DNA from: a virus
DNA length: 64,000 nucleotides
IMG/VR virus record: IMGVR_UViG_3300025466_001905
Location: 14,158 to 78,157 of that record
Strand: one strand, 5' to 3'
A model generated the notes under the pieces. That model saw nothing but the letters and a program-made list of their open reading frames with translations, did no database searches and was not told the origin of the DNA. Shown here one piece after another: positions 12,337 to 44,737 of this stretch. The first letter of the stretch is position 1. The number at the start of each line of letters is the position of its first letter. The position numbers and the translations under genes were made by a program.

Positions 12337-13302
12337 ATGAATATTTTAGTAACAGGCGGTTGTGGTTTGATTGGACACAACGTAGTACATCTATTAGAGC
12401 AACTAGGACACGAAGTCTCTGTCATAGACAATCGAACCACATATGGATTGGTACCCGAGACTGAGATAAATTATCTCATGCATGAACGGTTAAAAAAGAT
12501 CAAATCTCGATTGATCTACAGAGAAAATATCGAAACTGCGGTAACTACAGATTATATTATAGACAAACACAAGCCTGATATTGTGGTACATATGGCCAGC
12601 TTTCCTAGACAAAAAGTTGTAAATGTAAATCCTGCCTGGGGCAGCAGAGTCATGATGGAAGGCCTCATCAATGTGCTTGAAAGTTCTCGCAAACACGGTG
12701 TTAAAAAAGTCGTGTACATTTCTAGTTCAATGGTGTATGGTGACTTTTCTGATGATGTCTCAGAAGACGCAGTATGTAATCCAATTGGGCAGTACGGAAT
12801 CATGAAACTTGCAGGAGAGCAACTTGTTAAAGATTACACTCGTCGTGGTTGTTTTGACCATGTTATTATACGCCCTAGTGCCGTGTATGGACCCCTTGAT
12901 GTGGAAGACAGAGTGGTTGCCAAATTTATGCTCAGAGCTATGCGCGGAGAAACTCTTTGTGTAAACGGAGCCACAGAGACTTTGGATTTTACCTATGTTG
13001 ACGATGCGGCAGCTGGTATTGTTGCTGCGGCCTTGAGTGCAAATACCACAAACAAAACGTACAACATAACCAAAAGTCATAGTGTGAGCCTGGGTCAAGC
13101 TGCAAAAATGATAATAGATATTGTGGGATCGGGTAATATTGAAATCAGAGACAAAGATCCCGACTTCCCCAGTCGTGGAGCATTGAATATTGATGCGGCT
13201 CGTAGAGATTTTGGATTTGATCCTTTAGTAGATGTTCGTGAAGGATTTGAAAATTACTACTCATGGTTAAAAAATTCTGTGTACTGGAACATACAACAAT
13301 GA
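12337..13302 (+). CDS. NAD-dependent nucleotide-sugar epimerase/dehydratase
   Basis: TGGCGLIG, SSSMVYG, YGIMK, RPSAVYGP, DFTYVDD; AAGGA SD before ATG 12337. Confidence 0.9.
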   Translation: MNILVTGGCGLIGHNVVHLLEQLGHEVSVIDNRTTYGLVPETEINYLMHERLKKIKSRLIYRENIETAVTTDYIIDKHKPDIVVHMASFPRQKVVNVNPAWGSRVMMEGLINVLESSRKHGVKKVVYISSSMVYGDFSDDVSEDAVCNPIGQYGIMKLAGEQLVKDYTRRGCFDHVIIRPSAVYGPLDVEDRVVAKFMLRAMRGETLCVNGATETLDFTYVDDAAAGIVAAALSANTTNKTYNITKSHSVSLGQAAKMIIDIVGSGNIEIRDKDPDFPSRGALNIDAARRDFGFDPLVDVREGFENYYSWLKNSVYWNIQQ

Positions 13303-13916
13303 AAATAGTAGTGATTAGTGCTCATCCAGATGATTTAGAAATTGGATGTGTTGGCACTTTGAAAAAATTTCAAGATCAAGGAGCTACCATCATCTCTGTT
13401 GTTACAGTGCGTCCGTCTGCAGAAGTTAATTCTCAAAGATCCCGGTCCGTTGTCGAAGATGAATTACATGCCAGTTACACTATGACTGGCTTTGATCTTA
13501 GAATTTTTGATACTGACTTGCACGACAACGGACGTCCCAATTTACAAGTAGATAATGTCACAATGACCAAACTTTCATACTTGATTGACAGCTGTGATTT
13601 AGCAATTATTCCCAACAGTGAAGATTATCATCAAGATCACAGAGCTACAAATCATTTGGCATGGCCATTGTTACAGAAAAAAGCCAAAGAAGTGTGGACT
13701 ATGAATTCATGGCCCTATTGCTATCAATACAGATCTAACCCCAACATTTATCATGGCATCGACTGGCATGCAAAACAACAAGTATTGTCATGCTATAAAA
13801 GTTATATCAGTCAAGATAATCTTGATCAAATTCAAGCAATCAATTGTGTGAACGGCAACAAGGCTGGAGTACCCCATGCTGAGTCATTCAATCTATTGTA
13901 CAAGTATGTTAGATAA
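13299..13916 (+). CDS. PIG-L/LmbE family N-deacetylase
   Basis: AHPDD and HQDH metal-binding motifs. Confidence 0.88.
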   Translation: MKIVVISAHPDDLEIGCVGTLKKFQDQGATIISVVTVRPSAEVNSQRSRSVVEDELHASYTMTGFDLRIFDTDLHDNGRPNLQVDNVTMTKLSYLIDSCDLAIIPNSEDYHQDHRATNHLAWPLLQKKAKEVWTMNSWPYCYQYRSNPNIYHGIDWHAKQQVLSCYKSYISQDNLDQIQAINCVNGNKAGVPHAESFNLLYKYVR

Positions 13917-14952
13917 CATCAGTTTATTTCAAAACAATAGAAACTGGGATCAAATTCGTAACGAAGTCATTGACCTGGTTGATACCTATCATGCACTGGG
14001 TATTGCTCAAAATGGCAGCCCAATGTTGGAACTTGAATCTGTACTGGCCGGTAGATTTAATCGAAAACACTGTGTGACCACTGCATCATGCACAGATGCA
14101 CTGGTTATTGCTTTGAATGCTTTGAACTTGCCAAAAAATTCCTGTGTTGCAGTTAGCAATTACACTTTTACCGCCACTGCGCATGCCATTGCACGAGCAG
14201 GTTATCAAGTTATCCCAGTGGATGTTGACAACAACTACTGTATCAATTGTGAGTTGATTCCAGATGTATCAGCAGTGGTAGTGGTAGATTTGTTTGGTAA
14301 TATGAGTCAGTGGAGCACTCTTGAAAAATTCAAAGTTCCAATTATCAACGATGCAGCCCAAAGTATAGAAAGTCACAATGGGGTCAAATGGTCTGCGGAA
14401 TATGGTCTGATCAGTTGTTTGAGTTTTAGTCCATCAAAAACCATAAGTTCATGGGGTAGCGGTGGTGCATTGGTCACAGACAATGATGACATAGCCAATA
14501 TTGCACGGAAACTAAGATTGCACGGCAAAATCAAAAATTCAGATATTGCAGTTGATGCTGGGCTCAACAGCATGATGTCCAGTTTTGAAATCGCGTCAGT
14601 TCTAGTGGGTTTGCGATATTCCAGTAACTGGCAACAACGTAGGAAATCCATAGCTGATTACCTTATAAGCAATAGTACCCATGTTTCTGGCATGGACACC
14701 CAGCTTGAACAGCACACCTATCACAAATTGGTATTTCAGTCTTGGGATCGTAATAGCATAATTAAAAAAGCAAGAGACAATCAAATTGAGCTGGCAATAC
14801 ATTACAATATCACAGTCAACGACGAAACACTGTATCAAACTGCTGGCAGTTATCCTGCAAGCAATGATTTGAAGCAAATAAGTTTTACTGTGCCTAATCA
14901 ACACACATTGACTGATGTAGAAGTAGAAAGAATAGCAAAGGTTTTAAAATGA
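13906..14952 (+). CDS. DegT/DnrJ/EryC1/StrS PLP-dependent sugar aminotransferase
   Basis: SCTDAL, YTFTATA, DAAQS, SFSPSK (Schiff-base Lys), GSGG, RLHG. Confidence 0.9.
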   Translation: MLDNISLFQNNRNWDQIRNEVIDLVDTYHALGIAQNGSPMLELESVLAGRFNRKHCVTTASCTDALVIALNALNLPKNSCVAVSNYTFTATAHAIARAGYQVIPVDVDNNYCINCELIPDVSAVVVVDLFGNMSQWSTLEKFKVPIINDAAQSIESHNGVKWSAEYGLISCLSFSPSKTISSWGSGGALVTDNDDIANIARKLRLHGKIKNSDIAVDAGLNSMMSSFEIASVLVGLRYSSNWQQRRKSIADYLISNSTHVSGMDTQLEQHTYHKLVFQSWDRNSIIKKARDNQIELAIHYNITVNDETLYQTAGSYPASNDLKQISFTVPNQHTLTDVEVERIAKVLK

Positions 14953-15911
14953 ATATTTTGATACTTGGTGGGCACGGATTTATTGGTCATCATACAACCA
15001 AACTTTTGACCAATCTAGGGCATAGTGTCAGTGTGGTGGACTTGCATCATCGCTACGGGGACTTTGAACTTTGGGAGTATAATCCTGTGCTTGCGCAACG
15101 AATCGAGTACATGGGTGATCACAAATTTTATCCTGGCAATGTGTCCAATAGAGAATTCATGGAATCTGTGTTTGATTCTGAATCTTTTGACGTGGTAATT
15201 GATTTGGCCACATATCCCAATGCCAAAATGGTCAAACGTAACATAGTTGATGCTACGGAAAATATGATTACAGCCACTGCCATTGCACTGGAACTATGTG
15301 TCAAGTACAATGTCAGGCGGTTTGTATTGGCCAGTAGTTCTATGGTTTATGGAGAATTTGGAGCTGACCCGCCGGATGAAAAGTCACAATGTAATCCTTT
15401 GACGTTGTATGGCAGTTATAAATTACAATGCGAACAAATGTGTAAGATATGGCACAAAGAACACGGCATTGAATACAGTATATTGAGACCAAGTGCACTG
15501 TATGGCATCAGAGACATGGTAGTACGTGTGATTAGCAAGATGACTGTGAATGCTATTAAACTTGGAATCATGGAGGTCAATGGTCCCAACAACAAACTAG
15601 ATTTTTCCTGGGTAGATGATGTGGCCAGTGCTTTTGCTACTGCAGCCACTGATCCAGCCTGTGCCAATCAGATTTTTAATTGTACCCGGGGAAATGGAAG
15701 AAAAATTATTGAAGCTGCTGAACTGATACAGGCCAGAATACCCAGTAAAATTTTACTAAAACCGCATGATGAATTTTATCCCAATAGAGATACTTTGAAC
15801 AGCAGTCGTCTAAGAGAAATCACATCCTGGAATCCTACCATGAATATTGACACTGGCATCAATTTGTATTTAGATTGGTTTTTAAAACAAGACTATATTA
15901 CCAAATTTTAG
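14949..15911 (+). CDS. NAD-dependent epimerase/dehydratase (paralog of 12337)
   Basis: GGHGFIG, SSSMVYG, YGSYK, RPSALYG, DFSWVDD. Confidence 0.88.
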   Translation: MNILILGGHGFIGHHTTKLLTNLGHSVSVVDLHHRYGDFELWEYNPVLAQRIEYMGDHKFYPGNVSNREFMESVFDSESFDVVIDLATYPNAKMVKRNIVDATENMITATAIALELCVKYNVRRFVLASSSMVYGEFGADPPDEKSQCNPLTLYGSYKLQCEQMCKIWHKEHGIEYSILRPSALYGIRDMVVRVISKMTVNAIKLGIMEVNGPNNKLDFSWVDDVASAFATAATDPACANQIFNCTRGNGRKIIEAAELIQARIPSKILLKPHDEFYPNRDTLNSSRLREITSWNPTMNIDTGINLYLDWFLKQDYITKF

Positions 15912-18114
15912 TATTGTACTTGTTGTAATAGTAATTCTCAAGCCATTCCCAATCAAAGCTGAGTTTTAATGCAGAGTAGTCACCGTTGACCTGTTCATAG
16001 TATTCTACTGCATCGCCTGCGCCTTGCAGACAATATTCGGCATTTTGCCCTTGTGCTCGACTACACCAAACTTTTAGTCTGTACTGTATTTCAGTGCCTG
16101 CACCTTGATCAACTTCTTGTTTGAGCTTTAGCACTTCTCTAAATGCACTTCGCCATGTGATCCAGGGATCTGTGTTAAATCTTGAAATACTGGCACAGAT
16201 AGGCACAACTTCGTGAGCTGCACTCAAAGTAAAATCCAGGCCTGGTACAGTGTCTAACACCAACTGTTTGTTGTACAAATTTATATTCATGGCACCATAT
16301 TCTAAACCATTCAAAGGGTTACGACTGTGGAAAATATAGTGCTTGGGTTGTTGCAAGCGATCTGGTGCAAAATCAAATTTAAATTCTGGCAAAACTTCAG
16401 TCTTGGCAAACACAGCAAAAAACCAAGGAGTTGAGCTCAATGCCGCAGCAGTTTTATACGCAAGTTCTCTGCCAGTTACTCCGTCACTGCGCAGAGCATG
16501 TGGGCATATAGACAACAAATTTTTCCAATTTTCTTCAGCCATTGGTTCACCATTGCTGATAAACACAATGTCAGATGGTGTTGCCTTGCAAATACGCTGA
16601 CTTCGATCTATATATGGATAATCATAGACCTGTGTTTTGACATAGGGTATTGCAGCTCTGGGCACTATCACAGTTTCTGCTCCTGAATCCAATGGCACAA
16701 CAGTTTTGGTTTGTTCTCTCCATAATGGCACAGTGGGCACAAAATTGTCATAATCATTGACTGTGAACAAGGCCAGTGGACCTGTCCAGGATCTTGTTTT
16801 GATTTGTTCCACATGTGTATCACTGTTGTGTGAAATTATTGGCATGGGTCTTCTAGGCACAGAAATGCCTACAAAATTCAAGTCATACCATTCTAACAAT
16901 TTACAATTTTCAGATCTAGACAAAAATGTTGGTGAGTGCATGAAAAATGTGTCACCAAACTTTTCTCCGTCAGATGCAAACACATGCAACATACCTGCTT
17001 GCCATTGTTCTGGATGCCAGGTAAAGTCAAAATTGCTGTAGTCACACACGCTGGAACATATCCAAACAAATTCGTGGCCATCTCTATTGGCACCGCGGGC
17101 AATGCGTTTCAATGTGTCCAAGTAGTTGTCAAAATATCTTACAATAGAAACGTTCTGATTGACTTGGTCAATTGTAATCTGTGCATTGTTGTCTAGATGA
17201 TCTATCACATAGGTCCATGCTGCTACTCTAGAAGTTTTGATACGTACCTGATCAATGTATTTGATTTCGGTGGCACCAGGCATGGAGTACACTGGTCCTC
17301 CTGTTTTTTGATGTTGTGTGGCAAATTGGTAGATATAGGGTGGCGATCCTGGATCTGGTACCCAACTGAAATCTACTTCGCCCACATCCACTGTGTCAGG
17401 CACTGACCATTGACTGTAATCAGGCAATAGTTCGGCTCTGGGCCAGGTCATGAACTTTCTTTCCATTGCACCAGGCACACAATACTCGACCGTGGGCATA
17501 ATTTCAGCACGATGCCATTGGTTACCAAACACATAGATATAAGGCGGATCTCCTGGATCCGGTACCCAACTGAAATCCCAATGGCACTCAGTCAATACCT
17601 GCCATTGACAATGATACTTTTGTGGCAATTTAGCCAATGGTGACTGCATAAATTTGTACTCATTGGCACCAGGCACATGGTACTCGACCGTGGGCATCTT
17701 GGTAGCTGGGTACCATTGATTGCCAAACACATAGATATATGGTGGATCCCAAGGGTGTGGATGCCAGGTGTAATCAAACTCTATATTGGGCACCAGTTCC
17801 ACATAGTGCGGATCATTGATCAGTCTGCGAGTGGGTATGATGTGTTGATGAAATCGATATTGTACTTCTGTAACATGCGTGGGCACAAGATATGTGCCTG
17901 AATACTGATGATGTTGACTGGACCAAGTATGCGTAAAGTCTTTTTCCCAAGACACAGGTTCCCAAAGAAAATCAAAGTCAGTATAGTCCGCTAAGTAGTT
18001 GATCCACCAAAAATATCTGGTACGACTTAGTGTTCTTGCATGATCAATATCGGATGCCAGTTGCTCGTGAGGAAATACGTTGGGTTTTGTTCCAGAATAA
18101 AATACGTCAAACAT
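15898..18114 (-). CDS. Repeat-containing protein with C-terminal GT-A-like domain
   Basis: Tandem ~66-68 aa DF/YxWxP..PPYIY.F repeats; C-terminus (IVFISNGEP, GVTG, WRSAFRE) homologous to 41640-42569. Confidence 0.65.
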   Translation of the reverse strand: MFDVFYSGTKPNVFPHEQLASDIDHARTLSRTRYFWWINYLADYTDFDFLWEPVSWEKDFTHTWSSQHHQYSGTYLVPTHVTEVQYRFHQHIIPTRRLINDPHYVELVPNIEFDYTWHPHPWDPPYIYVFGNQWYPATKMPTVEYHVPGANEYKFMQSPLAKLPQKYHCQWQVLTECHWDFSWVPDPGDPPYIYVFGNQWHRAEIMPTVEYCVPGAMERKFMTWPRAELLPDYSQWSVPDTVDVGEVDFSWVPDPGSPPYIYQFATQHQKTGGPVYSMPGATEIKYIDQVRIKTSRVAAWTYVIDHLDNNAQITIDQVNQNVSIVRYFDNYLDTLKRIARGANRDGHEFVWICSSVCDYSNFDFTWHPEQWQAGMLHVFASDGEKFGDTFFMHSPTFLSRSENCKLLEWYDLNFVGISVPRRPMPIISHNSDTHVEQIKTRSWTGPLALFTVNDYDNFVPTVPLWREQTKTVVPLDSGAETVIVPRAAIPYVKTQVYDYPYIDRSQRICKATPSDIVFISNGEPMAEENWKNLLSICPHALRSDGVTGRELAYKTAAALSSTPWFFAVFAKTEVLPEFKFDFAPDRLQQPKHYIFHSRNPLNGLEYGAMNINLYNKQLVLDTVPGLDFTLSAAHEVVPICASISRFNTDPWITWRSAFREVLKLKQEVDQGAGTEIQYRLKVWCSRAQGQNAEYCLQGAGDAVEYYEQVNGDYSALKLSFDWEWLENYYYNKYNTKIW
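17270..17790 (-). repeat. Intragenic tandem repeat, ~200-bp units (3 copies)
   Basis: TACTCGACCGTGGGCAT at 17483 and 17681; GGTACCCAACTGAAATC at 17357 and 17561. Confidence 0.8.
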
Positions 18115-18115
18115 A

Positions 18116-19207
18116 ATGATTAGAATAGATGAAATTTACAACAATACATTTTGGCCTTGGCTGAGAAAAAACAAAGTTGGAGCCAGATTATTTTTTTGTG
18201 ATCCGCCCGGCAAGGCCGATGTAGACAGTCTATTTAATCTTGGTTCTGACAACATGGTAGAAACTGACTATGTTTTTTTGCATGATCAAGAACCTGTGCA
18301 TTTGGATTTGCATAAACCCTTGTTTGATGCAGTGATAAGTCGTAACCAGGACATACACTGTAAACCGCAAGGACACATAATTGTCAGTGAACAAGGCGAA
18401 TATGTTGACCAATTATTGGCCATGTACGGTTGGCAGAGTCATTATTATTTTTACCATGGGTGGGCATGTAAAGATTGGTTTCGTGGGTATGACAAAACTT
18501 TTCTGATTGATCGGGCTCGAAATCGACAACCCACAAAAACTTTTATTAGTCCCAATCGTATTATTGCAGGCAAACGCGATCATCGAGTGTTGTTTCTTTA
18601 CCATGTGTTTAAAAATCAACTTGAACATAATTGGATATCTGCTCCACGCACATGTGTTTATGAAAATGTAGATATATCTGTCATAGCTAGCAAGTATAAT
18701 AGCATATACACAGACATAGAGCAAGTGTTATTGTCGGCACAATTGCCCAGGCTGTTCCCTGGAGAACATGTTCAACATATGACCAGTTGTTGGTTGACCA
18801 ATTTTGACGAAGCAGCAGACAGTCTTGTGTATGTGCCAACCGAAACAGTATATTTTGGACGTAGGCTACACATAACAGAAAAAACTTTCAAAGCCATAGC
18901 CTTAGAAATGCCATTTGTGCTGGTTGCTCCTGCTCATAGTTTGCGTTACATGAGAAGTTATGGATTTCAAACGTTCAAAGGCATATTCGACGAAAGCTAC
19001 GACGACGAAACCGACGATATCATTCGCATTGAAAAAGTTACAAAATTATTGACTGATCTAGATAATATGACAGTCAAAGAACGACAAGAGATACATCGTG
19101 CTTGTTTGCCTGTAGTGGAACACAATTTTGAACACTTTTATGGTTCAGGGTTTGACCAGATACTATGGGCAGAGCTGAAGGATATGTTGCATGAGCTTGC
19201 CATTTAA
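18116..19207 (+). CDS. GT10-like ('TEK' motif) putative glycosyltransferase
   Basis: ETVY...ITEKTFKAI...PF...GFQTF...FDESYD. Confidence 0.6.
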   Translation: MIRIDEIYNNTFWPWLRKNKVGARLFFCDPPGKADVDSLFNLGSDNMVETDYVFLHDQEPVHLDLHKPLFDAVISRNQDIHCKPQGHIIVSEQGEYVDQLLAMYGWQSHYYFYHGWACKDWFRGYDKTFLIDRARNRQPTKTFISPNRIIAGKRDHRVLFLYHVFKNQLEHNWISAPRTCVYENVDISVIASKYNSIYTDIEQVLLSAQLPRLFPGEHVQHMTSCWLTNFDEAADSLVYVPTETVYFGRRLHITEKTFKAIALEMPFVLVAPAHSLRYMRSYGFQTFKGIFDESYDDETDDIIRIEKVTKLLTDLDNMTVKERQEIHRACLPVVEHNFEHFYGSGFDQILWAELKDMLHELAI

Positions 19208-20351
19208 TTTTGTCACTGACAACATTGTAAAAAACAAAATATATCCAGCCTTGGCCCAGTGGCAGGCACAACCATACACAAAAGAATGGCGAGATTTTGT
19301 ACGCCATTGGCCAAACACAGTGCCCATAGAACTACTGGAACACTGTAGAGCTCACAATTACCCACACAACATATCCACTACCGGGCTGGGATTTTATGCC
19401 ATTGGCCTGGGATTTTTTAATTTTGATGTTGATTATTTTGACCTAATACCGCACTGGGTTTTAGAAAACAACAACAAAATACTATTTTACTATCACGAAG
19501 GTGACAATCCTTATAGAATAAAACAACGTCTGGACGAACTTTGTTATATTCATCAGTTGCCAGTGGATTGCTATCGTTTTGTCAGTGGCAATACCGCAGC
19601 CGATAATATTCCAGGATTTGTTTACTTTGCAGATCATGAGTTGTTGTACTGGAATCGAAATCGCACAGTGCCTGCTTGTGCTCTGAATTTTGCTCCAAGA
19701 TCAAAAGAATTCACAGTATTGTCTCGTACACACAAATGGTGGCGAGCCACTGTGATGACTGATATGATTCGTAATCAAATATTGACCAACAGTTTTTGGA
19801 GTTATAATACAGATATCTCTTTAGATGAGTTGCCCAACGACAACCCCATTGAAATTGATACGCTTGATATCAGCACAGATATAACTGATTTTTTAGCAGG
19901 AGCACCTTACACATGTGATACTCAAACTCAAGAACAGCACAATGATCACAGTCAAACTGAACTTGCACACTACTGTGATTCTTATTGTAGTGTTGTTTTA
20001 GAAACTCATTACGATGCTGATCAAAGCGGGGGTGCTTTTTTGACCGAAAAAACATTCAAACCTATCAAGCACGGTCAACCATTTGTGATTGTGGGCGCAC
20101 CAGGAAGTTTAGAAACTTTGAGAAAATTAGGCTACAAAACTTTTGATCAAGTGATAGACTCAAGCTATGATAACATACAGAACAACACTCACCGTTGGCA
20201 AAAGACACTCCAGGTTATCAAACAATTGCAACAACAAGATATGCATAAAATTTTATTGGCCTGCCAGGCAGATCTTAAACACAACCAAGAATTATTTTTG
20301 TCATCAAAATACACAAGATTAAATAGCTTACTTGAAAGATTACATGATTAA
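19191..20351 (+). CDS. GT10-like ('TEK' motif) putative glycosyltransferase
   Basis: VLET...FLTEKTFKPI...PF...GYKTF...IDSSYD. Confidence 0.6.
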   Translation: MSLPFNFVTDNIVKNKIYPALAQWQAQPYTKEWRDFVRHWPNTVPIELLEHCRAHNYPHNISTTGLGFYAIGLGFFNFDVDYFDLIPHWVLENNNKILFYYHEGDNPYRIKQRLDELCYIHQLPVDCYRFVSGNTAADNIPGFVYFADHELLYWNRNRTVPACALNFAPRSKEFTVLSRTHKWWRATVMTDMIRNQILTNSFWSYNTDISLDELPNDNPIEIDTLDISTDITDFLAGAPYTCDTQTQEQHNDHSQTELAHYCDSYCSVVLETHYDADQSGGAFLTEKTFKPIKHGQPFVIVGAPGSLETLRKLGYKTFDQVIDSSYDNIQNNTHRWQKTLQVIKQLQQQDMHKILLACQADLKHNQELFLSSKYTRLNSLLERLHD

Positions 20352-33834: not shown

Positions 33835-33837
33835 AGA

Positions 33838-37032: not shown

Positions 37033-38414
37033 TGTTGACTCCAGTATTTGCATTCGTTCCACCATGCCTCCATTTCTGGAAAAGTTTTCAAAAAATCTGT
37101 GCCTCTACGTCGATCATGCTCAGAGAAGAAACGATAAAAATCGGCTTTGTTTTTGTTAACATAATCAGTGCTTATTTTTTGACCGTCTCTCATCCAGGCA
37201 ATGTCTCTGTCTAGTCTTTGAAGTTCGAAATCTTTGAATCCATGAAAGGGATCATCCAGTGTTTCACTTTGACCGGTCATGCAACCCCAGAGATTTTCCA
37301 GTTGGTCTGCATAGCTTTCCGGCAACAATTGAAGACTCTGCCAGCTGGGTTGTCTAAGAACAGGAGTATCAAACCATACTCGTTGATAGGTTTTACTGTA
37401 AATTTTCCGCAGTCCTAGTATGCCAGCCATGAGTTTGGGGAATCCAGTTACCGAAAGATTATTCATGGTAATTATAAACGTAATTGAATTTCTGCCTGGT
37501 ATTTCTGTCAAGAACTGATTTACTCGGTCCCAGAGCAAATTAAAATTCAATCCATGTCTGATGTACTCAGCCTGCTCCATCCAAGAATCTAAACTGACAA
37601 ATTGCATGAAGTGTTCAATCTTTTCGCCTTCGCATAATTTTTTCACATAGTCTTTGTACTTGGTCCATAAATTCTCATCCACTGAAAAATTACTGGTAAC
37701 ATTTAAATGCAGATCAGATTTGGGATGCTCCAGTACATAATCAAACACGCGGTAGGTGTTTTTATCCATCAATGGTTCGCCGCCGGTCATACGAAAATGT
37801 CGCAGTTCTGGATACAGGGTAGGCCACCAACGCCAAAATGCTTCTACATAAGGGTTGTGTTGATTTACAGGTATAGGACGATTGCGCCCTGTAAAATGCT
37901 CAGGATCATTGTGCACAGTACTAGTAGGGTATCCACCATGTCTATCGACTTCAGACTGCCAGGTCGAACTAAATTGTGGACTACAATAGCTACATGCCAA
38001 ATTACAAGCATGATTAAAATTGACTTCAACATAACTGGGAACAATATCTTGGTCTCCTGTTGAGTATTTAATCTTGTCAAAATCAACTGCGGCCCAGGGT
38101 TCTCCAGATCTGTAGTGTCGATCGCTTAGTTTTCCATTGTCTTCCATGTGCCAACAGTAGCTGCATTCGGTGGGCCGCTCACCATTGAGCATGAGTTGGC
38201 GTTGTACTTTTTTGTACTGGGTATTGTGTAGTGCCGACGGATTGATTTTGATTGTGTCTGGATCTATCATATGCAACGGCGGATGATAACAACTGTTGTT
38301 CAATCCAGTGGTCAAATGCAGACTGACCTGTTTCCACTTGGCCAGACACAAGGATGGTCCCAGCTGATTTTTCATTTGTTCAGCTGCATTCAAAAATTTA
38401 CTTTTGTCCGACAA
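37029..38414 (-). CDS. N-terminal twitch-domain radical SAM protein (CxAKW/SCxHP type)
   Basis: CLAKW..SCYHP..CSYCW..SDR then CNLACSYC, GGEP. Confidence 0.9.
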   Translation of the reverse strand: MSDKSKFLNAAEQMKNQLGPSLCLAKWKQVSLHLTTGLNNSCYHPPLHMIDPDTIKINPSALHNTQYKKVQRQLMLNGERPTECSYCWHMEDNGKLSDRHYRSGEPWAAVDFDKIKYSTGDQDIVPSYVEVNFNHACNLACSYCSPQFSSTWQSEVDRHGGYPTSTVHNDPEHFTGRNRPIPVNQHNPYVEAFWRWWPTLYPELRHFRMTGGEPLMDKNTYRVFDYVLEHPKSDLHLNVTSNFSVDENLWTKYKDYVKKLCEGEKIEHFMQFVSLDSWMEQAEYIRHGLNFNLLWDRVNQFLTEIPGRNSITFIITMNNLSVTGFPKLMAGILGLRKIYSKTYQRVWFDTPVLRQPSWQSLQLLPESYADQLENLWGCMTGQSETLDDPFHGFKDFELQRLDRDIAWMRDGQKISTDYVNKNKADFYRFFSEHDRRRGTDFLKTFPEMEAWWNECKYWSQQ

Positions 38415-39384
38415 GTTTTAACTCCCATGGTTGCAGTTGCAACAAGTGATTTTTATTGTGTTCTAAGATTGGTAACATGTCTACGTACATTTTTTGCAAC
38501 TGTGTTTGGTCTAGTAAAAAGAGCTTGTCTAGCACACCTCGGATAGCAACAATTCTGTCTGCAGTTGACATATCGTCGTAGCTTTCGTCCCAGTAATCAG
38601 AAAATGTTTTAAAACCACAACGTTGTAGATTTGATATGAATCCTTGCGGACCAAAAATTACCATTGGTGTCAATTGCATGATTGGTCTAAATGTTTTTTC
38701 TGTGGGGAAAAATGTCAATCCGTTGTAGTAAGTTTCGCATACCAGTTCTAAAAATATTTTGGGATAAGCACCAGACAGTTCTGACACCAATGAAACTATT
38801 TCGCCAAGATTTATTTTTTTATCATACTGCATGTCTACTGAGGAAATTTTTCTTGGACAAGAGTGTAAAAAACTTACTGCACTGTTAATTTCTTCTGGAT
38901 AATCAAACATAATTTCGTTTAATTGCAACGAACTCTTTTGTTGAAATGAGCTATTATCATAGTGACAGGTCAACAGGGTTTGATCATGATAAAATTTATC
39001 CAACCATGCCAACATTAGCAATCTATTCCAGGTAGTTTTGCCTACAAAACAACCCACTGTGGCCAAACTGAGATTTTTTGCCTGGTGACTTGTCTGTATT
39101 TTTTTGCTGAAATTGATCCAAATATTGGGAACAATCTTGATATTGTATATATCGTGGTATTCTTCAATATTAGCAGTTTGTATTTCAAACCTGTCTTTGT
39201 CAATGTCATAAGTGTCACATATTTTATCTAACACATCATATAAATTACAAGATCGCAAACATGGGCCTTCGTTGTTCAGACTAATTATGACCTTATCATC
39301 AGTTTGTGTAGCAGCATGAATTATTTCAATAATTTTTGTTTCAAAATTCCAAATATGACTATCTTTGTTTTCTAATGTTATCAT
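38398..39384 (-). CDS. GT10-like ('TEK' motif) putative glycosyltransferase
   Basis: VCET...FPTEKTFRPI...GFKTF...WDESYD. Confidence 0.6.
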   Translation of the reverse strand: MITLENKDSHIWNFETKIIEIIHAATQTDDKVIISLNNEGPCLRSCNLYDVLDKICDTYDIDKDRFEIQTANIEEYHDIYNIKIVPNIWINFSKKIQTSHQAKNLSLATVGCFVGKTTWNRLLMLAWLDKFYHDQTLLTCHYDNSSFQQKSSLQLNEIMFDYPEEINSAVSFLHSCPRKISSVDMQYDKKINLGEIVSLVSELSGAYPKIFLELVCETYYNGLTFFPTEKTFRPIMQLTPMVIFGPQGFISNLQRCGFKTFSDYWDESYDDMSTADRIVAIRGVLDKLFLLDQTQLQKMYVDMLPILEHNKNHLLQLQPWELKLVGQK

Positions 39385-39388
39385 GTTT

Positions 39389-40477
39389 TTACTTAATTAA
39401 TTGATTCAAATAACTCCTAGACACTTTTCCTGTGAAGTTCAATGGGATTTTGTCTACTTTGACCAGTTTGTGAGCCTTACAGTGCGAGCCCAGTGACAGT
39501 AGAAATTTTTGTATCTGTTCTGGCGCACAGTCTCCCACATACATACAATTCACAGAGTCCTGCCCAAATACAGCACAATCGCTGATCTCCGGAAACTTTT
39601 TAAGCAACTGTGCTTCAATGGTAGCAGGATTAAGCATTACGCCTTTGGATCTTATTTGATCGTCGCTTCTTCCCAGTAATTTGTAGTAGTGTTTTTCATC
39701 TTGTTCGGCTAAATCACCAGTGTCAAACCAGTCTGAAAATGCACATGCTGGTCCTTTCAGATGCAAATGATTGGCCAAGTCTATTTTGACATCTACACCA
39801 AATGGCAGTCCAATGGTATTGAATCTTTGTTCACCGTAACGCGGATTTGTAAAGCAATGACCCATTGCTTCGGTCATACCAAACGATTCAAGAATGGGTG
39901 CGTTGAATTGGTCTTTGAGTTGATTGTATTCATTTTCATCTTTGAATTTTCCGCCAGCTGATATAATAAAGTCTAAACTGTTAAAATTAAATTTGACCAA
40001 GGTTCTTAAAAATGCTGGGCCAGTGGCCATGTACGTGGGACGGCATTGCGGACTCAGGTGCCAGTTTTTCACAGTGAAATGATGTAGTTCACAGCTGGCT
40101 TTTTTGGCTGCCCAGTAAAATGTTTGCCCGTAAGCATGCCATAGTGGCATCACCGATGCAAAAACATCATTGGCAGTTATATTGTATGCTGACACCACAT
40201 TGGATGTCAGGATATCCAACTGGTCTTGACTGAAACTGTAAAATTTACTGTCTCCAGTGGTGCCCGAAGTGTACATGAATAGTTTTTCGTTGGGGTAGTC
40301 ACGGCCGTTGCGATAGCGTTCTTCGGTGTCAGTGATCAGCAAACTCCAATCTGAATTTTCCAGTATGTAATTATTTCTGTCAGCATTGGCCGATGGATTT
40401 AGTATTACCAAGCTGTATTCTGATAGCTGGTCTATATAATCTTGCGGATTTTGTACGCAAATTGCGGCTCTTTTCAT
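39389..40477 (-). CDS. Compact AMP-forming (ANL superfamily) ligase
   Basis: YTSGTTGDSK, PLWHAYG, FGMTE, DTGD, GRSDD, P...TGK. Confidence 0.85.
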   Translation of the reverse strand: MKRAAICVQNPQDYIDQLSEYSLVILNPSANADRNNYILENSDWSLLITDTEERYRNGRDYPNEKLFMYTSGTTGDSKFYSFSQDQLDILTSNVVSAYNITANDVFASVMPLWHAYGQTFYWAAKKASCELHHFTVKNWHLSPQCRPTYMATGPAFLRTLVKFNFNSLDFIISAGGKFKDENEYNQLKDQFNAPILESFGMTEAMGHCFTNPRYGEQRFNTIGLPFGVDVKIDLANHLHLKGPACAFSDWFDTGDLAEQDEKHYYKLLGRSDDQIRSKGVMLNPATIEAQLLKKFPEISDCAVFGQDSVNCMYVGDCAPEQIQKFLLSLGSHCKAHKLVKVDKIPLNFTGKVSRSYLNQLIK

Positions 40478-40478
40478 T

Positions 40479-41120
40479 TTAATCTATTTTCCTGTCTAAA
40501 CTTGTAGAATTATCCAATTGTCTATTGCCATGGTAGGTTCCGGCCAGTTGTATATTTTTGGTCACTGTTGATCCTATAAGGTAGTTACAATAGTCAACAG
40601 TTTCAATATTGTGGGTAGATTTTCCTAAAAAATTGGATCTTGCAGCCACATATGAACCTTGCCCCAAAGTGGCAAACAAACAGTATACATAGGGACCAAT
40701 ATGGCAAAAATCTTTAATTTGCACCTTGTGGCTCAATGCCGAATATGCAGTAATTACCACAAAATTTCCAATTACTACATCATCTAAAACAATGTTGAAT
40801 TCATTGATAAAACATCCTCGACCAATGGTCACATTGAACCCAATTTGGTTTGATGATCCAATCACGCTAAAGTAATCTGGGCCAAACTGATCTAAAAAAT
40901 CAACTATTTTCTTTTTTAAACCTATGCTGGCTGTGCCTGTGAAAAATTGCCGGTTATCAAACCAATCTTGATTGTTATTTTCTATATCTTCCAGTCGGTG
41001 TAGTTCGCATGGTCGGTACTGTTGAAAATAATTAAACAAAGTCACATTTATATAACTGGATCCCACAAAACATAAAATTTTGTCAGTGTCATACAATATA
41101 TTAAATTTTAAATTAGTCAT
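40479..41120 (-). CDS. Hexapeptide-repeat sugar O/N-acyltransferase (NeuD/PglD-like)
   Basis: IGxG left-handed beta-helix repeats, SH motif, HIGP. Confidence 0.7.
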   Translation of the reverse strand: MTNLKFNILYDTDKILCFVGSSYINVTLFNYFQQYRPCELHRLEDIENNNQDWFDNRQFFTGTASIGLKKKIVDFLDQFGPDYFSVIGSSNQIGFNVTIGRGCFINEFNIVLDDVVIGNFVVITAYSALSHKVQIKDFCHIGPYVYCLFATLGQGSYVAARSNFLGKSTHNIETVDYCNYLIGSTVTKNIQLAGTYHGNRQLDNSTSLDRKID

Positions 41121-41637
41121 TTATAAATCCAGAAACTTGCAAGGTGTATTTGTTTTCCATACCAGCATTGGCACTCAGATGTAATATTTCACTGTCCCAG
41201 ATCAATGCATCACCAACAGACCAGTGTGTGTGTACAACATCGTTGTACTGTATAAAATGTCCCAGTTTCCATGATTCTAAATGTATATTTGCTCGTACTT
41301 TGAGATCCGTTCTACCAGGATAACGTTTGTTGATTTGGAAAAAAGTGTCACGATGCAGTGGTACTATACAACCAGGTGGTTGTAAAATGCTACTCACGGT
41401 AATGACCTCCATGCCCAGTTGACGACCAATATTATCATAATCCAAATTGGTATTGTCCCACCACAACTGATGTATAAGTGTATTTTCATACCCGTAAGTA
41501 CTGGGCATTCCACCATACTTGTTGTGTATATCAGTTAACTCATATACCTGATGTTGGATACAACTGCCTTGGTGTTGAGTATAGTCAGCCGAAAGTATTT
41601 GCGTGAAGTCATAATCCAGATAAGATTTTTTAAGCAT
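41113..41637 (-). CDS. 2OG-Fe(II) oxygenase / cupin-like hydroxylase
   Basis: PG..VPLHRD (HxD), LHLSANAG..KYTLQVSG. Confidence 0.7.
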   Translation of the reverse strand: MLKKSYLDYDFTQILSADYTQHQGSCIQHQVYELTDIHNKYGGMPSTYGYENTLIHQLWWDNTNLDYDNIGRQLGMEVITVSSILQPPGCIVPLHRDTFFQINKRYPGRTDLKVRANIHLESWKLGHFIQYNDVVHTHWSVGDALIWDSEILHLSANAGMENKYTLQVSGFIND

Positions 41638-41639
41638 TT

Positions 41640-42569
41640 TTACCATCCTTCTTGAGAGCGTATGACATCAATTTCTCTAGTCATAATTCCACGATTGTGC
41701 CAGTTTGATCTGTAATGATGTTTAAAAAATGCACTTTCTTTTTCCAACAACATGTTTATAGGCAAGTCTAATTGTGTAACCAAATCTTCAGACACACGAC
41801 CAGCCAATAGTTCCGGATCGCTATTTTCAACTGTGCTCCACAGTGCTGCTAACTCGTCAAAATTTTGCACTGTTCTATAGTCCCATTGCGGAGTTATCAT
41901 GGTCATGTATGTGCCCATACGGGCCCCGGCTATGGCCCAGATTCCGTGTTCAACGTCTCGTCCCACATTGTGCCATACAGTGAGATGATCAAGATTTCTG
42001 CTGTGTACTCGATCACGAAATTCTGAGATGGCAGGTCGGTTACCGCGGTCAAGACACATCTTGACCCCTTCTCTGAATCCAGCTCGCCAGGCATGAAAAG
42101 CCGATCCATTGGGATAGGTAATGCTGTAGCAATCGTGCATGGCCCAGTACATGGGATCAAAACAAAATTCTACTTCAGTCTCTGTGCGTCCATCAGTGGC
42201 TTCGTGAGTCTGCATGTTCCATGCAAATTCTCTTGTCCAAGAACTTAGGCCGCCGTTTCCGTACATGAGACCATTGATATGATTGCGAGCACGCCATCTA
42301 AACACCGCAGACTCCCATTGGCTGTCCGGAAACTCCAAGGTCAAATTAAAAAACTTTTCATCTGGCATATTGTCGCCGTCGATTAAAATAAATCTTTCAG
42401 TTTCGCTAACATCAGCAGCAGCTTTGTGTGCAGCATCACTTCCTTTGACACCATCCACACGTTTGGCCCATGGAATCAAATTGCGAATTTTTATCCAAAA
42501 TTCTTCACGTTGAGGTTCATCGTAGGAAAGATAAATGCAGTCTAAATCTGCTATGTCAATTTGTTTCAT
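41640..42569 (-). CDS. GT-A-like putative glycosyltransferase
   Basis: LSYDEP, VDGVKG...AHKAAA, IDGD (DxD), NGL.YGNGG, AWRAGFREG. Confidence 0.65.
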   Translation of the reverse strand: MKQIDIADLDCIYLSYDEPQREEFWIKIRNLIPWAKRVDGVKGSDAAHKAAADVSETERFILIDGDNMPDEKFFNLTLEFPDSQWESAVFRWRARNHINGLMYGNGGLSSWTREFAWNMQTHEATDGRTETEVEFCFDPMYWAMHDCYSITYPNGSAFHAWRAGFREGVKMCLDRGNRPAISEFRDRVHSRNLDHLTVWHNVGRDVEHGIWAIAGARMGTYMTMITPQWDYRTVQNFDELAALWSTVENSDPELLAGRVSEDLVTQLDLPINMLLEKESAFFKHHYRSNWHNRGIMTREIDVIRSQEGW

Positions 42570-42906
42570 CTAAGGCTTTCAATTTCCAATATTTTTTGTT
42601 TTCATGATTCACAATCACTGTAATATCTCTAGGATCACAGGCCTGACCTGCAGTGCTAGGAATCAGTTTTGTTGTTGTGATTGTATGTTGAAAAAATTTT
42701 AGTTGTCCATTAACCACCTTAACCTGAGGATTTGCGGCAGTAAAGGTGGCATGATCAATCTCTATGTAATTACCTGAAATTGCTTCCATGCTGTAAAATA
42801 AAAAATTACCGAGATCGTCGTAATACAATCTATAAAATGGTGCAACTGCTGGCTCTACTGGTTTGTCCCAGACAGCCCAAAAATTATCTGTGGTCTCTTT
42901 ACTCAT
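42556..42906 (-). CDS. Hypothetical protein
   Basis: YRLYYD motif; overlaps both neighbours. Confidence 0.7.
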   Translation of the reverse strand: MSKETTDNFWAVWDKPVEPAVAPFYRLYYDDLGNFLFYSMEAISGNYIEIDHATFTAANPQVKVVNGQLKFFQHTITTTKLIPSTAGQACDPRDITVIVNHENKKYWKLKALDETN

Positions 42907-43642
42907 ACAATTTCCAATCTTTGACATGATAGTGTACCAGTCCCCATTGTGCAACAGTGTTGATTCTCATGCCAGGTTCGGTGTTTTCCCATATCAGTTC
43001 TTTGGTCCAGTTGTCGGTGGCAATGGGGTTAATGTGACGTTTCATGTGAACAATAGTAGGACCAAGTCCTGCAGGCAAAGTCACACGCTCTGTGCCCATT
43101 ATTACTGCGGCCATGGCATAGACAACATCTGTAGTTGCCAATTCATCTGGTCGCTTCAGTAATTTTCTATAGTGCGTCCAATTTAAAAAAATATTTTGAA
43201 CCAACCGAAAAAATTCTCTAGCAGTCTCACTCACACGCCAGTAGGTAATAGCATTGTAAACATCTGGCAAGTGATTGTGATCAAATAGTTTTCTATAATG
43301 TCTAGAAGTTGCGGGTTGATTGTAAAAATTTCTAGCACCTTGGCTGATCACAACATCTCGATGTTCAAACAAGGTCCACCAATGGTCCATTGGGCTGGTT
43401 GCTACCATGTCAGCTTCTAATTTGATTGTTTGTCTATATGGACTAGCGCGAAACACTTGCCCATCGTTGGCGTAGCCGCCTAGATCACCGTATGGCAACT
43501 GATCTTTGGTGAGTATGGTGATATGAGCATCAGGGTGCCAAATTTTTATACTGGTAGCTAACTGTTGAGCGCAGGATTCATAATCCACAGTATCGTTATT
43601 GATGGCAGGAATTAGATATCCGCGTTCATGAGTGATTGGCAA
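42899..43642 (-). CDS. GT8-like glycosyltransferase
   Basis: SPYRQTIKLEAD, TDVVYA, VHMK; paralog of 43626. Confidence 0.65.
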   Translation of the reverse strand: MPITHERGYLIPAINNDTVDYESCAQQLATSIKIWHPDAHITILTKDQLPYGDLGGYANDGQVFRASPYRQTIKLEADMVATSPMDHWWTLFEHRDVVISQGARNFYNQPATSRHYRKLFDHNHLPDVYNAITYWRVSETAREFFRLVQNIFLNWTHYRKLLKRPDELATTDVVYAMAAVIMGTERVTLPAGLGPTIVHMKRHINPIATDNWTKELIWENTEPGMRINTVAQWGLVHYHVKDWKLYE

Positions 43643-44426
43643 TTATCTCTCCAAGATGATGTTTGCCCATGGCATGGAAATCTTGGGCAAGGGTAATCCA
43701 GCGTGATTTTTGATCTGCAGTGACAAAATTTACCCTATACTTGTCAGGTTCCAATTGTACCAGTTGATGATCTGGCATTACTGTGGCCAATTGCCAAGGA
43801 ATAGAAGGCATGCTCAAAGTATGCCCGTCTACTATGTTCATAGCAATGCTCAATGCAAAATCATTTCTATAGGTAGATTTCAATATGCCGTAGATATTTC
43901 TATAATGTTGCCAATGGTCACGAATCATTTGCATGGCATCAAATATGAATTTCACAGTGCTGGATCTGCGGAATATGATCACAGTGGCCCAGCTCATGGG
44001 CATGAGATGCCGACCAAAGAAATTATTGTCATCAAACGGTTGCTGACCGGTGACATCATATGCCCAGCGGTGACATAAAAAATCTTGATCAACTGATAAT
44101 AGTAGTAACAATTGATCGCTGGCTACCACATAGTCTGCATCCAGCAACAAAGTTTTATCCCAGGGACTTAGGTCATAGGCATTTGATCTATTGCCGTTGT
44201 GCCAGGTCACAGTAGTATCAAGATCAGCAAATTTACGAGTATTGAATCCCACTGTTTCCGCAAATATAACTTTTTCAAATTTATACTCAGGCGGAATTGG
44301 TTGATCAGTGACCACACACACAGGCAAGTTTAAGTGTCTGCGAATATTTTGCGCCGACCAATTGGCCATGGCCAAATAATCTATTTGTTCGTTGTTGTAG
44401 GCAAAAATCAATACACCAGTGGTCAT
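43626..44426 (-). CDS. GT8-like glycosyltransferase
   Basis: GVLIFA, VTD, SPWDKTLLLDADY (DxD), RNDFALSIA, HAMGK. Confidence 0.7.
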   Translation of the reverse strand: MTTGVLIFAYNNEQIDYLAMANWSAQNIRRHLNLPVCVVTDQPIPPEYKFEKVIFAETVGFNTRKFADLDTTVTWHNGNRSNAYDLSPWDKTLLLDADYVVASDQLLLLLSVDQDFLCHRWAYDVTGQQPFDDNNFFGRHLMPMSWATVIIFRRSSTVKFIFDAMQMIRDHWQHYRNIYGILKSTYRNDFALSIAMNIVDGHTLSMPSIPWQLATVMPDHQLVQLEPDKYRVNFVTADQKSRWITLAQDFHAMGKHHLGEIIANHS

Positions 44427-44731
44427 CGGTTTTTACTTACCTCATCGTATTCTACTAACCAAGCATTCATTTGTTCTTGCCAGCGTTGTTGTGCAAGCTC
44501 AATCAATTCTTGTGGTATTATTTTAATAGGATTTTCGTATAAATCCAACAACACCATTGGTGTCACTGGATCACAGATGTGTAATTGAATCAACAACGGT
44601 GGGCCTGCTTGCCATAGCCCTCCTGCATGTGCAAAAATCATTTTGGCTTGATACTTTTCTTTGAGTACTCGTTTGACCGCAGCATGATCAAATCGACTGC
44701 GGCTGTATGCAACTAATTCATCTGTATTCAT
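44423..44731 (-). CDS. Hypothetical protein (first gene of the - strand enzyme operon)
   Basis: ORF track; GGLW, LLDLYENP motifs. Confidence 0.75.
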   Translation of the reverse strand: MNTDELVAYSRSRFDHAAVKRVLKEKYQAKMIFAHAGGLWQAGPPLLIQLHICDPVTPMVLLDLYENPIKIIPQELIELAQQRWQEQMNAWLVEYDEVSKNR

Positions 44732-44737
44732 ACGTTA

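Follow-up and report, generated by a model that had tools for sequence, protein, structure and literature searches.

Viruses that make their own glycans are already known. The fibril glycans of giant viruses are the precedent, and Freeman and colleagues are said to have found, in 2023, glycosylated capsid and tail proteins in mycobacteriophages (as cited in PMC12619734). In the Mimivirus fibril, chlorovirus (A64R), and mycobacteriophage systems, soluble enzymes for nucleotide sugars (Gmd, aminotransferase, acyltransferase) and glycosyltransferases are encoded by the virus itself, within or beside the structural genes. Here, we describe a locus in a window of 64,000 nucleotides, the whole stretch of DNA analyzed, which corresponds to bases 14158-78157 of one 78-kb viral contig (IMG/VR record IMGVR_UViG_3300025466_001905). 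The locus, an island of 33 open reading frames (ORFs) at positions 12337-44731 of the window, likewise combines such enzymes and lies beside tail genes, but it also carries a five-paralogue set of N-terminal-twitch radical S-adenosylmethionine (SAM) proteins, an amidinotransferase, and a carbamoyltransferase, which those three systems lack. As in virion glycosylation systems, the sugar genes sit by the structural module, both here and in the relatives described below (the contig L082, five near-complete genomes, and the cultured Ralstonia phage RsoM2USA), with the difference that the island is known from its genes alone. This type of pathway has no characterized member.

The O-antigen/colitose pathway (Gmd-ColD-ColC) offers another comparison. 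Its Gmd and ColD have clear homologues in the island, and short-chain dehydrogenase/reductase (SDR), DegT, and NeuD-type acyltransferase proteins are standard in O-antigen loci. However, O-antigen and capsule loci carry a priming transferase, Wzx/Wzy, an ABC exporter, or a ligase; the island has none of these, and Gmd/ColD are only an add-on in it. Radical-SAM-rich phage islands have been remarked on since 2010 and have stayed uncharacterized (PMC2853527, PMC5332604, PMC9723584). The earlier statement that no characterized pathway has this enzyme set holds; islands of the type had been noticed before. Among them, Campylobacter phages CP220 and CPt10 possess a 10-12-gene interchangeable module with five radical SAM proteins and a "glycine amidinotransferase" (Timms et al. 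2010, PMC2853527). We rejected this module as a homologous system and regard it as a functional analogy only, as its radical SAM proteins score at most 31 bits on the NCBIfam model NF033640 (cut-off 170). The island amidinotransferase used as a query gave no Campylobacter phage match at 1e-5.

Enzymes of the tail-linked island

The 33 ORFs fill positions 12337-44731 with 99.7% coding sequence; 27 of the 32 ORF junctions overlap, and the largest gap is 84 bp. The island begins 75 bp from a tail-fiber-like gene, and tail-fiber-like, giant-ORF, and baseplate wedge genes adjoin it, which bears out the original prediction of about 34 tightly coupled genes directly after the tail-fiber genes. Hidden Markov model (HMM), PDB-sequence, or fold evidence identified 27 of the 33 genes as sugar-nucleotide, glycosyltransferase, or tailoring enzymes. 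The island encodes soluble enzymes for nucleoside diphosphate (NDP)-amino and -deoxy sugars, amidino and carbamoyl transfer, radical C-H chemistry, and glycosyl transfers. No membrane protein and no credible transmembrane (TM) segment was detected among the 33 by a hydropathy scan, in which two single 19-residue windows, both within soluble folds, only graze the threshold. Nor did Pfam and hydropathy scans reveal a priming transferase, flippase/Wzx, Wzy polymerase, ABC exporter, or ligase in the island, in agreement with the earlier view that its enzymes are soluble and that export genes are not recognizable.

Genes are named here by their lower window coordinate. Conservation was counted over 57 fetched IMG/VR loci of at least 20 kb, and "core" denotes 12 genes: the SDR 12337, the DegT aminotransferase, a 738-aa transferase, two GT-B glycosyltransferases, the amidinotransferase, the carbamoyltransferase, the orphan 25269, and four N-terminal-twitch (N_Twi) radical SAM proteins. 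Two phage-like contigs, L082 and L083 (G006 C1, 183 kb, and C3, 148 kb), which are binned in a 6.9-Mb "Haliscomenobacter sp." metagenome-assembled genome (MAG), served for closer comparison. The radical SAM proteins are as follows.

21360-22349, plus strand: classical radical SAM protein with a C-terminal SPASM domain, accessory; weak Pfam/NCBIfam matches; CxxxCxxC at residue 19; 8 loci
26326-27615, minus strand: N-terminal-twitch radical SAM protein, core; 289 bits; CxxxCxxC at residue 132; median identity 72%
27602-28816, minus strand: N-terminal-twitch radical SAM protein, core; 334 bits; CxxxCxxC at residue 123
29499-30761, minus strand: N-terminal-twitch radical SAM protein, core; 387.5 bits
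30748-32112, minus strand: N-terminal-twitch radical SAM protein, core; 274 bits; 49% identical to RsoM2USA_202
37029-38414, minus strand: N-terminal-twitch radical SAM protein, conserved tail-proximal copy; 311 bits

The six radical SAM proteins of the original prediction all contain CxxxCxxC, and five of them belong to NF033640 ("twitch domain-containing radical SAM protein", N_Twi_rSAM), membership being a whole-protein HMM score above the curated 170 bits; these five score 274-387.5 bits, and 21360, at 29 bits, is a non-member. In the five, CxxxCxxC lies at residues 123-144, behind a Cys-rich twitch/SPASM-like domain at the N terminus, with four to six cysteines ahead of the motif, and Pfam SPASM matches residues 8-97 in three. 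Their mutual identity is just 20-31%, and they are therefore old paralogues. The 29499 protein has more than 7,700 homologues, the best 120 of which are 78-85% identical and 419-439 aa long, and no PDB relative at E<=0.1. The tail-proximal 37029 protein is 70% identical in L082 and 35% identical to RsoM2USA_349. It should be noted that NF033640 is defined by sequence only; no solved structure or characterized member was found, and membership thus gives no reaction.

Up to nine proteins are glycosyltransferases or candidates.

18116-19207, plus strand: GT-B glycosyltransferase, ET...TEK family, core; AlphaFold pLDDT 91.8; Foldseek GT-B probability 0.99
19191-20351, plus strand: GT-B, ET...TEK family, core, by paralogy; 41 of 57 loci
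32105-33178, minus strand: GT-B, ET...TEK family, by paralogy; 48-53% identical in L082/L083
33838-34896, minus strand: GT-B, ET...TEK family, by paralogy; window-specific copy by Gmd/ColD, with no orthologue in relatives
38398-39384, minus strand: GT-B, ET...TEK family, by paralogy; present in the L082/L083 order
15898-18114, minus strand: 738-aa multidomain transferase, core; AF2 pLDDT 86; 55 of 57 loci
41640-42569, minus strand: GT-A-like, paralogue of the 15898 C-terminal domain (BLASTP 1.8e-14), conserved
42899-43642, minus strand: candidate GT-A (Nucleotid_trans/GT8-like) with an LEADM motif, by alignment and phrog_1903; 29% identical to RsoM2USA_352
43626-44426, minus strand: paralogue of 42899 with an LDADY motif, candidate GT-A; 28% identical to RsoM2USA_353

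The first five form one family of paralogues with invariant E-T and T-E-K residues ("ET...TEK"). The compact GT-B model gave VIA Z scores of 11.8 for T4 beta-glucosyltransferase, 10.9 for the H. pylori fucosyltransferase FucT (PDB 2nzw; root mean square deviation 4.7, 243 residues aligned), and 10.1 for T4 alpha-glucosyltransferase, which we treat as tied. The GT10 alpha-1,3-fucosyltransferases, represented by FucT, are compact GT-B enzymes of similar size, but no sequence link to them was seen: Pfam GT10 (PF00852) did not match the family even at E<=10, and successive profiles of 5, 24, and 53 sequences retrieved no glycosyltransferase from the PDB. We therefore name this an unannotated GT-B family. 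The five "GT10-like" proteins of the original prediction are indeed paralogous GT-B glycosyltransferases, and it is only their membership in GT10 that is not demonstrable, the resemblance being one of fold and motif with no HMM or PDB-profile link. The acidic/TEK-type motif in their C-terminal domain presumably recalls the FucT motif, a lead only. The family is large, with 13,730 clusters at 50% identity (E<=1e-3) in a library of 1.84 billion proteins and more than 543 relatives in a degenerate-pattern scan of IMG/VR. Its close BFVD matches all come from uncultured Caudovirales, and tblastn against 50,697 phage records, including RsoM2USA, found no member in cultured phages.

The 738-aa protein combines three W-rich repeats of ~65 aa (residues 117-290; FxW.PDP.DPPYIY.FGNQ...MPT.EY.VPGA) with a nucleotidyltransferase/GT-A-like domain (295-425) and a GT2-like GT-A domain followed by a helical tail (510-738). 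Foldseek matched it to LH3, K4CP, Mimivirus R699, and PBCV-1 A64R, and VIA Z scores against BcsA, hyaluronan synthase, and heparosan synthase were 10.6-9.6 for residues 295-425 and 9.5-8.3 for residues 510-735; the GT2-like domain resembles the catalytic domains of polysaccharide synthases and tandem GT-A enzymes. Homologues vary in length from 556 to 1013 aa, which suggests a variable number of W-rich repeats, and the repeat occurs in no other ORF of the contig. Its paralogue 41640 is 73-78% identical in the five near-complete genomes and 42% identical to RsoM2USA_350. The N-terminal part of gene 41640 contains an alternative allele or small cassette: in the freshwater runs X2 and X7, contigs diverge from the reference at 42360 and meet it again at 42561, and one X2/X7 joint skips 148 bases (42383-42532). 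In 42899 and 43626, the DxD-like LEADM and LDADY motifs are invariant in the alignment, the nearest named clusters in the language-model Atlas are PF03407/PF01501 (0.94-0.96), and a PDB profile reached glycogenin-2 at E=1; no Pfam or PDB match supports GT8. By its motif and alignment, 42899 is probably a Nucleotid_trans/GT8-like GT-A enzyme, at the level of a lead. Of the four predicted GT-A/GT8-like proteins, the GT-A fold thus stands for 15898 and its paralogue 41640, while the GT8 assignment of 42899 and 43626 lacks HMM support and stays at lead level.

The nucleotide-sugar and tailoring enzymes are the following.

12337-13302, plus strand: extended SDR of the NDP-sugar epimerase/4,6-dehydratase type, core; Pfam Epimerase 1.7e-41
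13263-13916, plus strand: PIG-L family de-N-acetylase, accessory; Pfam PIG-L 2.8e-13; only 3 related loci
13876-14952, plus strand: DegT/DnrJ/EryC1 sugar aminotransferase, core; Pfam 1.8e-51; 48 of 57 loci
14949-15911, plus strand: second SDR, accessory, 32% identical paralogue of 12337; 3 loci
20332-21363, plus strand: amidinotransferase (AGAT/StrB1/SxtG fold family), core; PDB phmmer
22985-24484, minus strand: O-carbamoyltransferase (NodU/CmcH family; NodU/NovN/TobZ-type), core; Pfam Carbam_trans_N and _C
34886-35863, minus strand: GDP-mannose 4,6-dehydratase (Gmd), window-specific cassette; Pfam GDP_Man_Dehyd 1.8e-112, 376 bits
35860-37065, minus strand: ColD-type pyridoxamine phosphate-dependent GDP-4-keto-6-deoxymannose 3-dehydratase, window-specific cassette; PDB
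39389-40477, minus strand: short ANL (adenylate-forming) ligase, window-specific cassette; Pfam AMP-binding 3.7e-22
40479-41120, minus strand: hexapeptide-repeat sugar N-acyltransferase (NeuD/PglB/VioB-like), window-specific cassette; Pfam Hexapep, TIGR03570 2e-17

These assignments, all made earlier from the sequence, were confirmed by HMM or PDB sequence matches. The SDR 12337 occurs in 51 of the 57 loci (median identity 65%); its best NCBIfam models are dTDP-glucose 4,6-dehydratase and GalE, each below cut-off, and a start at the ATG after AAGGAAACAG is more consistent with its SDR domain than one at GTG 12283. The amidinotransferase matched no Pfam or NCBIfam model, and phmmer against the PDB related it to AGAT (5.7e-15), StrB1 (7.5e-11), SxtG (4e-8), and also HsvA, its C-terminal Cys segment GGISCC aligning to GGGFHC of AGAT. 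It is the most conserved core gene, with a median identity of 81% in 38 loci. The carbamoyltransferase, present in 56 of the 57 loci and 46% identical to an RsoM2USA gene, matched NovN (2e-46), GdmN, and TobZ in the PDB. Gmd scores 382 bits on TIGR01472, against a cut-off of 415, and overlaps the adjoining ColD-type gene by 4 bp; the product of the latter aligns over residues 19-397 to ColD/WbdK (2gms, 1.1e-60), with GHH at the active-site His of ColD (SHH), which replaces the pyridoxal phosphate-binding Lys of aminotransferases. No island SDR could be assigned as a ColC-type partner, GDP-fucose synthase models scoring far below cut-off. The ANL ligase aligns over its full length to short-type acyl-CoA synthetase models.

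Eight proteins are known by a motif or by conservation, or are orphans.

22344-22994, minus strand: 216-aa protein with an N-terminal GDS motif; SGNH reading unconfirmed
24569-25291, minus strand: 240-aa protein, accessory; only phrog_7084, a family with no assigned function, at 1.2e-6
25269-26342, minus strand: orphan 357-aa protein, core; 56 of 57 loci
28813-29502, minus strand: 229-aa protein, accessory; no family match
33175-33834, minus strand: 219-aa protein, window-specific, absent from related loci; no family match
41113-41646, minus strand: 177-aa protein with an HxD...H motif, candidate cupin/2-oxoglutarate (2OG) oxygenase, unconfirmed; 69% identical in L082
42556-42954, minus strand: 132-aa protein conserved in close relatives, 31-40% identical in L082/L083; no family match
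44423-44731, minus strand: 102-aa protein, first gene of the minus-strand array; 54% identical in L082, 28% to RsoM2USA_354

No meaningful Pfam match at E<=10 was obtained for 22344, 24569, 28813, 33175, 25269, 42899, or 18116, and no NCBIfam match for 20332, 22344, 24569, 41113, or 33175. The orphan 25269 matched nothing in Pfam, nothing in the PDB with a 25-sequence profile, and nothing usable in the Atlas. The motifs behind the predicted SGNH protein (22344) and 2OG-Fe oxygenase (41113) are present, but neither has a significant family match: 22344 matched no Pfam, PHROG, or NCBIfam family, and 41113 reached Pfam Asp_Arg_Hydrox at E 0.14 only. There is no characterized representative of NF033640, of the GT-B family, or of the orphan 25269.

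Conservation and counterparts of the island

The island is vertically conserved, tail-linked, and modular. At least 8 of the 12 core genes lie within +/-10 kb and in the same order in 54 of the 57 loci, with median identities from 30% (DegT) up to 81% (the amidinotransferase). L082 and L083 keep the order tail-fiber gene, 44423, 43626, 42899, 42556, 41640, 41113, 38398, 37029, 32105, the radical SAM row, and the GT-B pair, without Gmd, ColD, 33838, 33175, the ANL ligase, or the acyltransferase. The conserved island therefore amounts to ~21 syntenic genes, to which window-specific cassettes are added, and the block is not the single 32-kb pathway that had been proposed. What this phage adds is a cassette for 3,6-dideoxyhexose, which brings an extra GT-B, and one for acylation, plus PIG-L, the second SDR, the rSAM-SPASM protein, and several uncharacterized genes. 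Among close relatives, Gmd/ColD with the extra GT-B, the ANL ligase with the acyltransferase, PIG-L, and the rSAM-SPASM gene are gained or lost. The occurrence of the whole conserved island on two different jumbo-phage-like contigs in the "Haliscomenobacter" MAG is either mis-binning or a hint of Saprospiraceae hosts.

The genomes of the five near-complete relatives measure 317-340 kb, and one of them has terminal repeats. All five share the gene order between island and wedge, and in each, as in this window, ~20.5-22 kb separate gene 41640 from the wedge gene. Four of them encode the ribosomal protein bS21. This, their habitat, and genomes of 317-340 kb match the freshwater Bacteroidetes-infecting bS21 huge phages described by Chen et al. 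2022 (PMC9723584). A paper on moraphages (PMC12619734) was rejected as a description of the lineage, which is not demonstrably that of this phage.

Cultured phages hold parts of the island. RsoM2USA encodes two N_Twi radical SAM proteins, and Vibrio phages K566/K567 encode two above the cut-off and three below it. In RsoM2USA, the wedge gene, a 2540-aa giant protein, and a tail-fiber-like gene are followed by homologues of 44423, 43626, 42899, and 41640, an N_Twi radical SAM gene, and a GT-A-like gene (ORFs 348-354; 28-42% identity), in the same order as here. A second RsoM2USA locus (ORF199-202) places a radical SAM gene (49%) near the carbamoyltransferase (46%). The genes of both loci are annotated as hypothetical. 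RsoM2USA lacks the ET...TEK family, and no amidinotransferase was found in this phage by tblastn. Small radical-SAM clusters annotated as hypothetical or "radical SAM domain" lie at 125998-128228 of RsoM2USA (L001) and 161548-168284 of K566 (L098), the latter phage having four or five N_Twi-like genes adjacent.

Cellular members are rare. Among 301 evenly sampled Bacteroidota genomes, NF033640 was above cut-off in three, one being the G006 MAG with its phage contigs, and the GT-B family was found in two, again including that MAG. True cellular loci hold two to four adjacent N_Twi radical SAM genes among those for GT2 enzymes, a methyltransferase-GT2 fusion, an Alg9-like polytopic GT-C among other proteins with 7-10 TM segments, an 11-TM protein, B12-radical SAM proteins, PhyH dioxygenase arrays, and a carbamoyltransferase; the family thus keeps glycan-related company in cells too. 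The membrane machinery of these loci is absent from the phage island. A Bacteroidota chromosome with 32% GC (G085:C2:1180466-1235600; loci L092, L093, and L101) carries a GT-B homologue (E 1e-45) and two N_Twi radical SAM genes, together with four PhyH paralogues, two B12-radical SAM proteins, an 11-TM protein, a carbamoyltransferase, and GT2 enzymes. This locus is a cellular, membrane-linked counterpart of the island.

Source contig and flanking genes

The contig sequence was found in 24 sequencing runs of freshwater metagenomes, none of them listed as RNA, and the phage reaches about 200x in run X2. Four freshwater runs mapped onto it give an even depth over 30-50 kb, and contigs from freshwater runs span the island/tail-fiber junction at 44.7 kb. 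The contig is therefore part of the genome of a freshwater jumbo myovirus, Rak2/RsoM2USA-like, and a host-phage chimera is ruled out by the even depth, the bridging contigs, and the same junction and conserved synteny in relatives. A 10-kb nucleotide search against GenBank phages gave no match. The tail-side features are as follows.

44732-44806, minus strand: intergenic hairpin AAAGGGCC-TTTT-GGCCCTTT, then TTTACC-17-TATAAT
44807-45799, minus strand: tail-fiber-like gene
45813-47093, minus strand: tail-fiber-like gene, with PHROG matches to tail-fiber and virion-structural families
47916-62102, minus strand: 4728-aa ORF with FG-GAP and CBM5/12 domains, between the wedge and tail-fiber-like genes
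47916-64000, minus strand: the 4728-aa ORF together with the baseplate wedge gene, which is cut by the contig end

The wedge gene, at the minus-strand end of the window, matches phrog_10646 (1e-102), and its tblastn relatives are in Agrobacterium phage Atu_ph07, Salicola phage SCTP-2, RsoM2USA, Xanthomonas phage XaC1, and the Rak2/121Q group. The 4728-aa ORF has a weak homologue in RsoM2USA ORF361, which, like ORF356, was confirmed as a virion protein by mass spectrometry (PMC8504454). A tail-fiber-like homologue, 47% identical, adjoins the island in L082. By its sequence, the 44732-44806 element is likely the terminator of the tail-fiber gene followed by a sigma70-like promoter of the island's own. 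The same hairpin with TTTACT-17-TACAAT occupies the same position in L082 (1535-1590), where the flanking proteins are merely 47-54% identical. Overall, scans for sigma70 promoters and for terminators did no better than chance, and TGTATATAWT, common to two intergenic spacers, occurs just twice, with no enrichment. The plus-strand side closes with ThyX and small phage genes. Upstream of the island are a CobS-like AAA ATPase (235-1323), an HNH endonuclease (4867-6141, plus strand; phrog_1314, 6e-114), and a homing-endonuclease-like gene (6117-6737, minus strand).

Proposed product and acceptor of the pathway

We infer that the pathway builds a decorated oligo- or polysaccharide in the cytoplasm. 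The SDR and the DegT aminotransferase would make or re-tailor nucleotide sugars, to which this phage would add a Gmd/ColD 3,6-dideoxyhexose branch, the PIG-L deacetylase, and the ANL-ligase/acyltransferase pair. The amidinotransferase, through a guanidino or amidino group, and the O-carbamoyltransferase would decorate the sugars, and the five long-diverged N_Twi radical SAM proteins may edit unactivated C-H positions, with epimerization, oxidation, dehydration, or C-C chemistry all possible. Assembly would fall to up to nine soluble transferases, five GT-B enzymes of the new family and four of GT-A type. The acceptor would be made by the phage itself (tail-fiber, baseplate, or other virion proteins), giving the particle a variable glycan coat.

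We tentatively favor such virion proteins as the acceptor because the core families are essentially viral and their linkage to the tail survives across hosts. That the linkage is kept across putatively different host phyla argues for a phage-encoded rather than a host-specific acceptor, and the turnover of cassettes resembles surface-antigen diversification. Several points weigh against this choice. The original prediction had reasoned from missing export genes to a cytoplasmic acceptor, which does not follow: soluble glycosyltransferases are usual in lipopolysaccharide (LPS)-core and O-antigen pathways, and the host could prime and export, so that missing membrane genes do not exclude a lipid-linked host acceptor. 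In addition, the rare cellular counterparts of the island families sit in membrane-linked glycosylation loci, and the structure that the GT-B model matches best, tied with FucT, is a DNA glucosyltransferase. The hairpin and TTTAC(C/T)-17-TA(T/C)AAT element, present here and in L082, suggests a separate, possibly earlier transcription unit, and the island may therefore not be simply co-transcribed with the tail-fiber genes. Finally, the only published reading for the lineage is remodeling of the host surface (PMC9723584).

In that reading, unusual sugars made by the soluble phage enzymes would be attached, at the inner membrane face, to the host's lipid-linked intermediates of LPS, O-antigen, or capsule, and the host's priming transferase, flippase, and ligase would export the altered glycan, which could block superinfection or change particle release. 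Besides being the interpretation published for freshwater bS21 huge phages (PMC9723584), to which the bS21 gene in four of the five near-complete island-bearing relatives points, it is in keeping with the GT2, GT-C/Alg9-like polytopic, and 11-TM proteins of cellular N_Twi loci, with the putative promoter of the island's own, and with the 270-min latent period of RsoM2USA, enough time for a surface change (PMC8504454). However, the 33 proteins include no membrane-bound one and no priming transferase, flippase, polymerase, or ligase; virus-specific core families syntenic with tail genes across host phyla are hard to square with host-specific lipid-linked acceptors; and the phage is of the lytic type, its lineage having no reported integrase (PMC9723584). 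We consider host-surface remodeling unlikely. A soluble small product, an aminoglycoside-like or oligosaccharide metabolite with guanidino and carbamoyl groups that would act within the infected cell or leave it at lysis, appears more improbable still. The closest solved homologues of the two group-transfer enzymes are natural-product tailoring enzymes (StrB1 and SxtG; NovN, GdmN, and TobZ), and twitch-type radical SAM proteins are known from aminoglycoside pathways (BtrN and others). Yet up to nine transferases is a large number for a small molecule, the searches of the island showed no exporter, resistance gene, or carrier protein, and the conserved linkage to tail genes would be left unexplained.

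Phage DNA, the other acceptor originally put forward, is very improbable. The GT-B enzymes would glycosylate phage bases and the other enzymes would tailor the sugars, as an anti-restriction measure; T4 beta- (Z 11.8) and alpha-glucosyltransferase (Z 10.1) are indeed among the VIA matches of the GT-B model, and NodU-type carbamoyltransferases acting on 5-hydroxymethylcytosine DNA are known from phage metagenomes. However, those structural matches are tied with FucT and other small GT-B proteins, and no ThyA-like dCMP/dUMP hydroxymethylase (PF00303) was found in any of the five near-complete relatives, the control being positive in 10 of 14 genomes. The thymidylate synthase of the window is an ordinary ThyX, and nine transferases with bulky decorated glycans would be unprecedented on packaged DNA. 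Tet/JBP (PF12851) was likewise found in none of the five relatives, with the control equally silent, which makes this result uninformative.

Returning to virion proteins as the acceptor, the proposal in its full form is that a virus-specific kit builds a chemically new guanidino/carbamoyl, radical-edited glycan on tail or other virion proteins in a jumbo-phage lineage that ranks among the most abundant in freshwater, and that swappable cassettes tune host range or evasion; taken as a whole, we regard it as possible but doubtful. The island families are very common in environmental viromes, and no reaction, structure, or target is known for any of them. RsoM2USA and Vibrio phage K566, both cultured, bring the question within reach of the bench. 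Should the host surface be the target, the island would represent an unusually large takeover of envelope glycans by a lytic phage. If the glycan instead coats the virion, abundant aquatic jumbo phages would join giant viruses and mycobacteriophages as makers of glycans, and NF033640 and the GT-B family would gain their first functions in the first radical-SAM-tailored viral glycan. Such a coat would also introduce sugar edits of a new kind (guanidino, carbamoyl, radical-SAM), and the swapping of cassettes would allow fast changes in host range or immune evasion.

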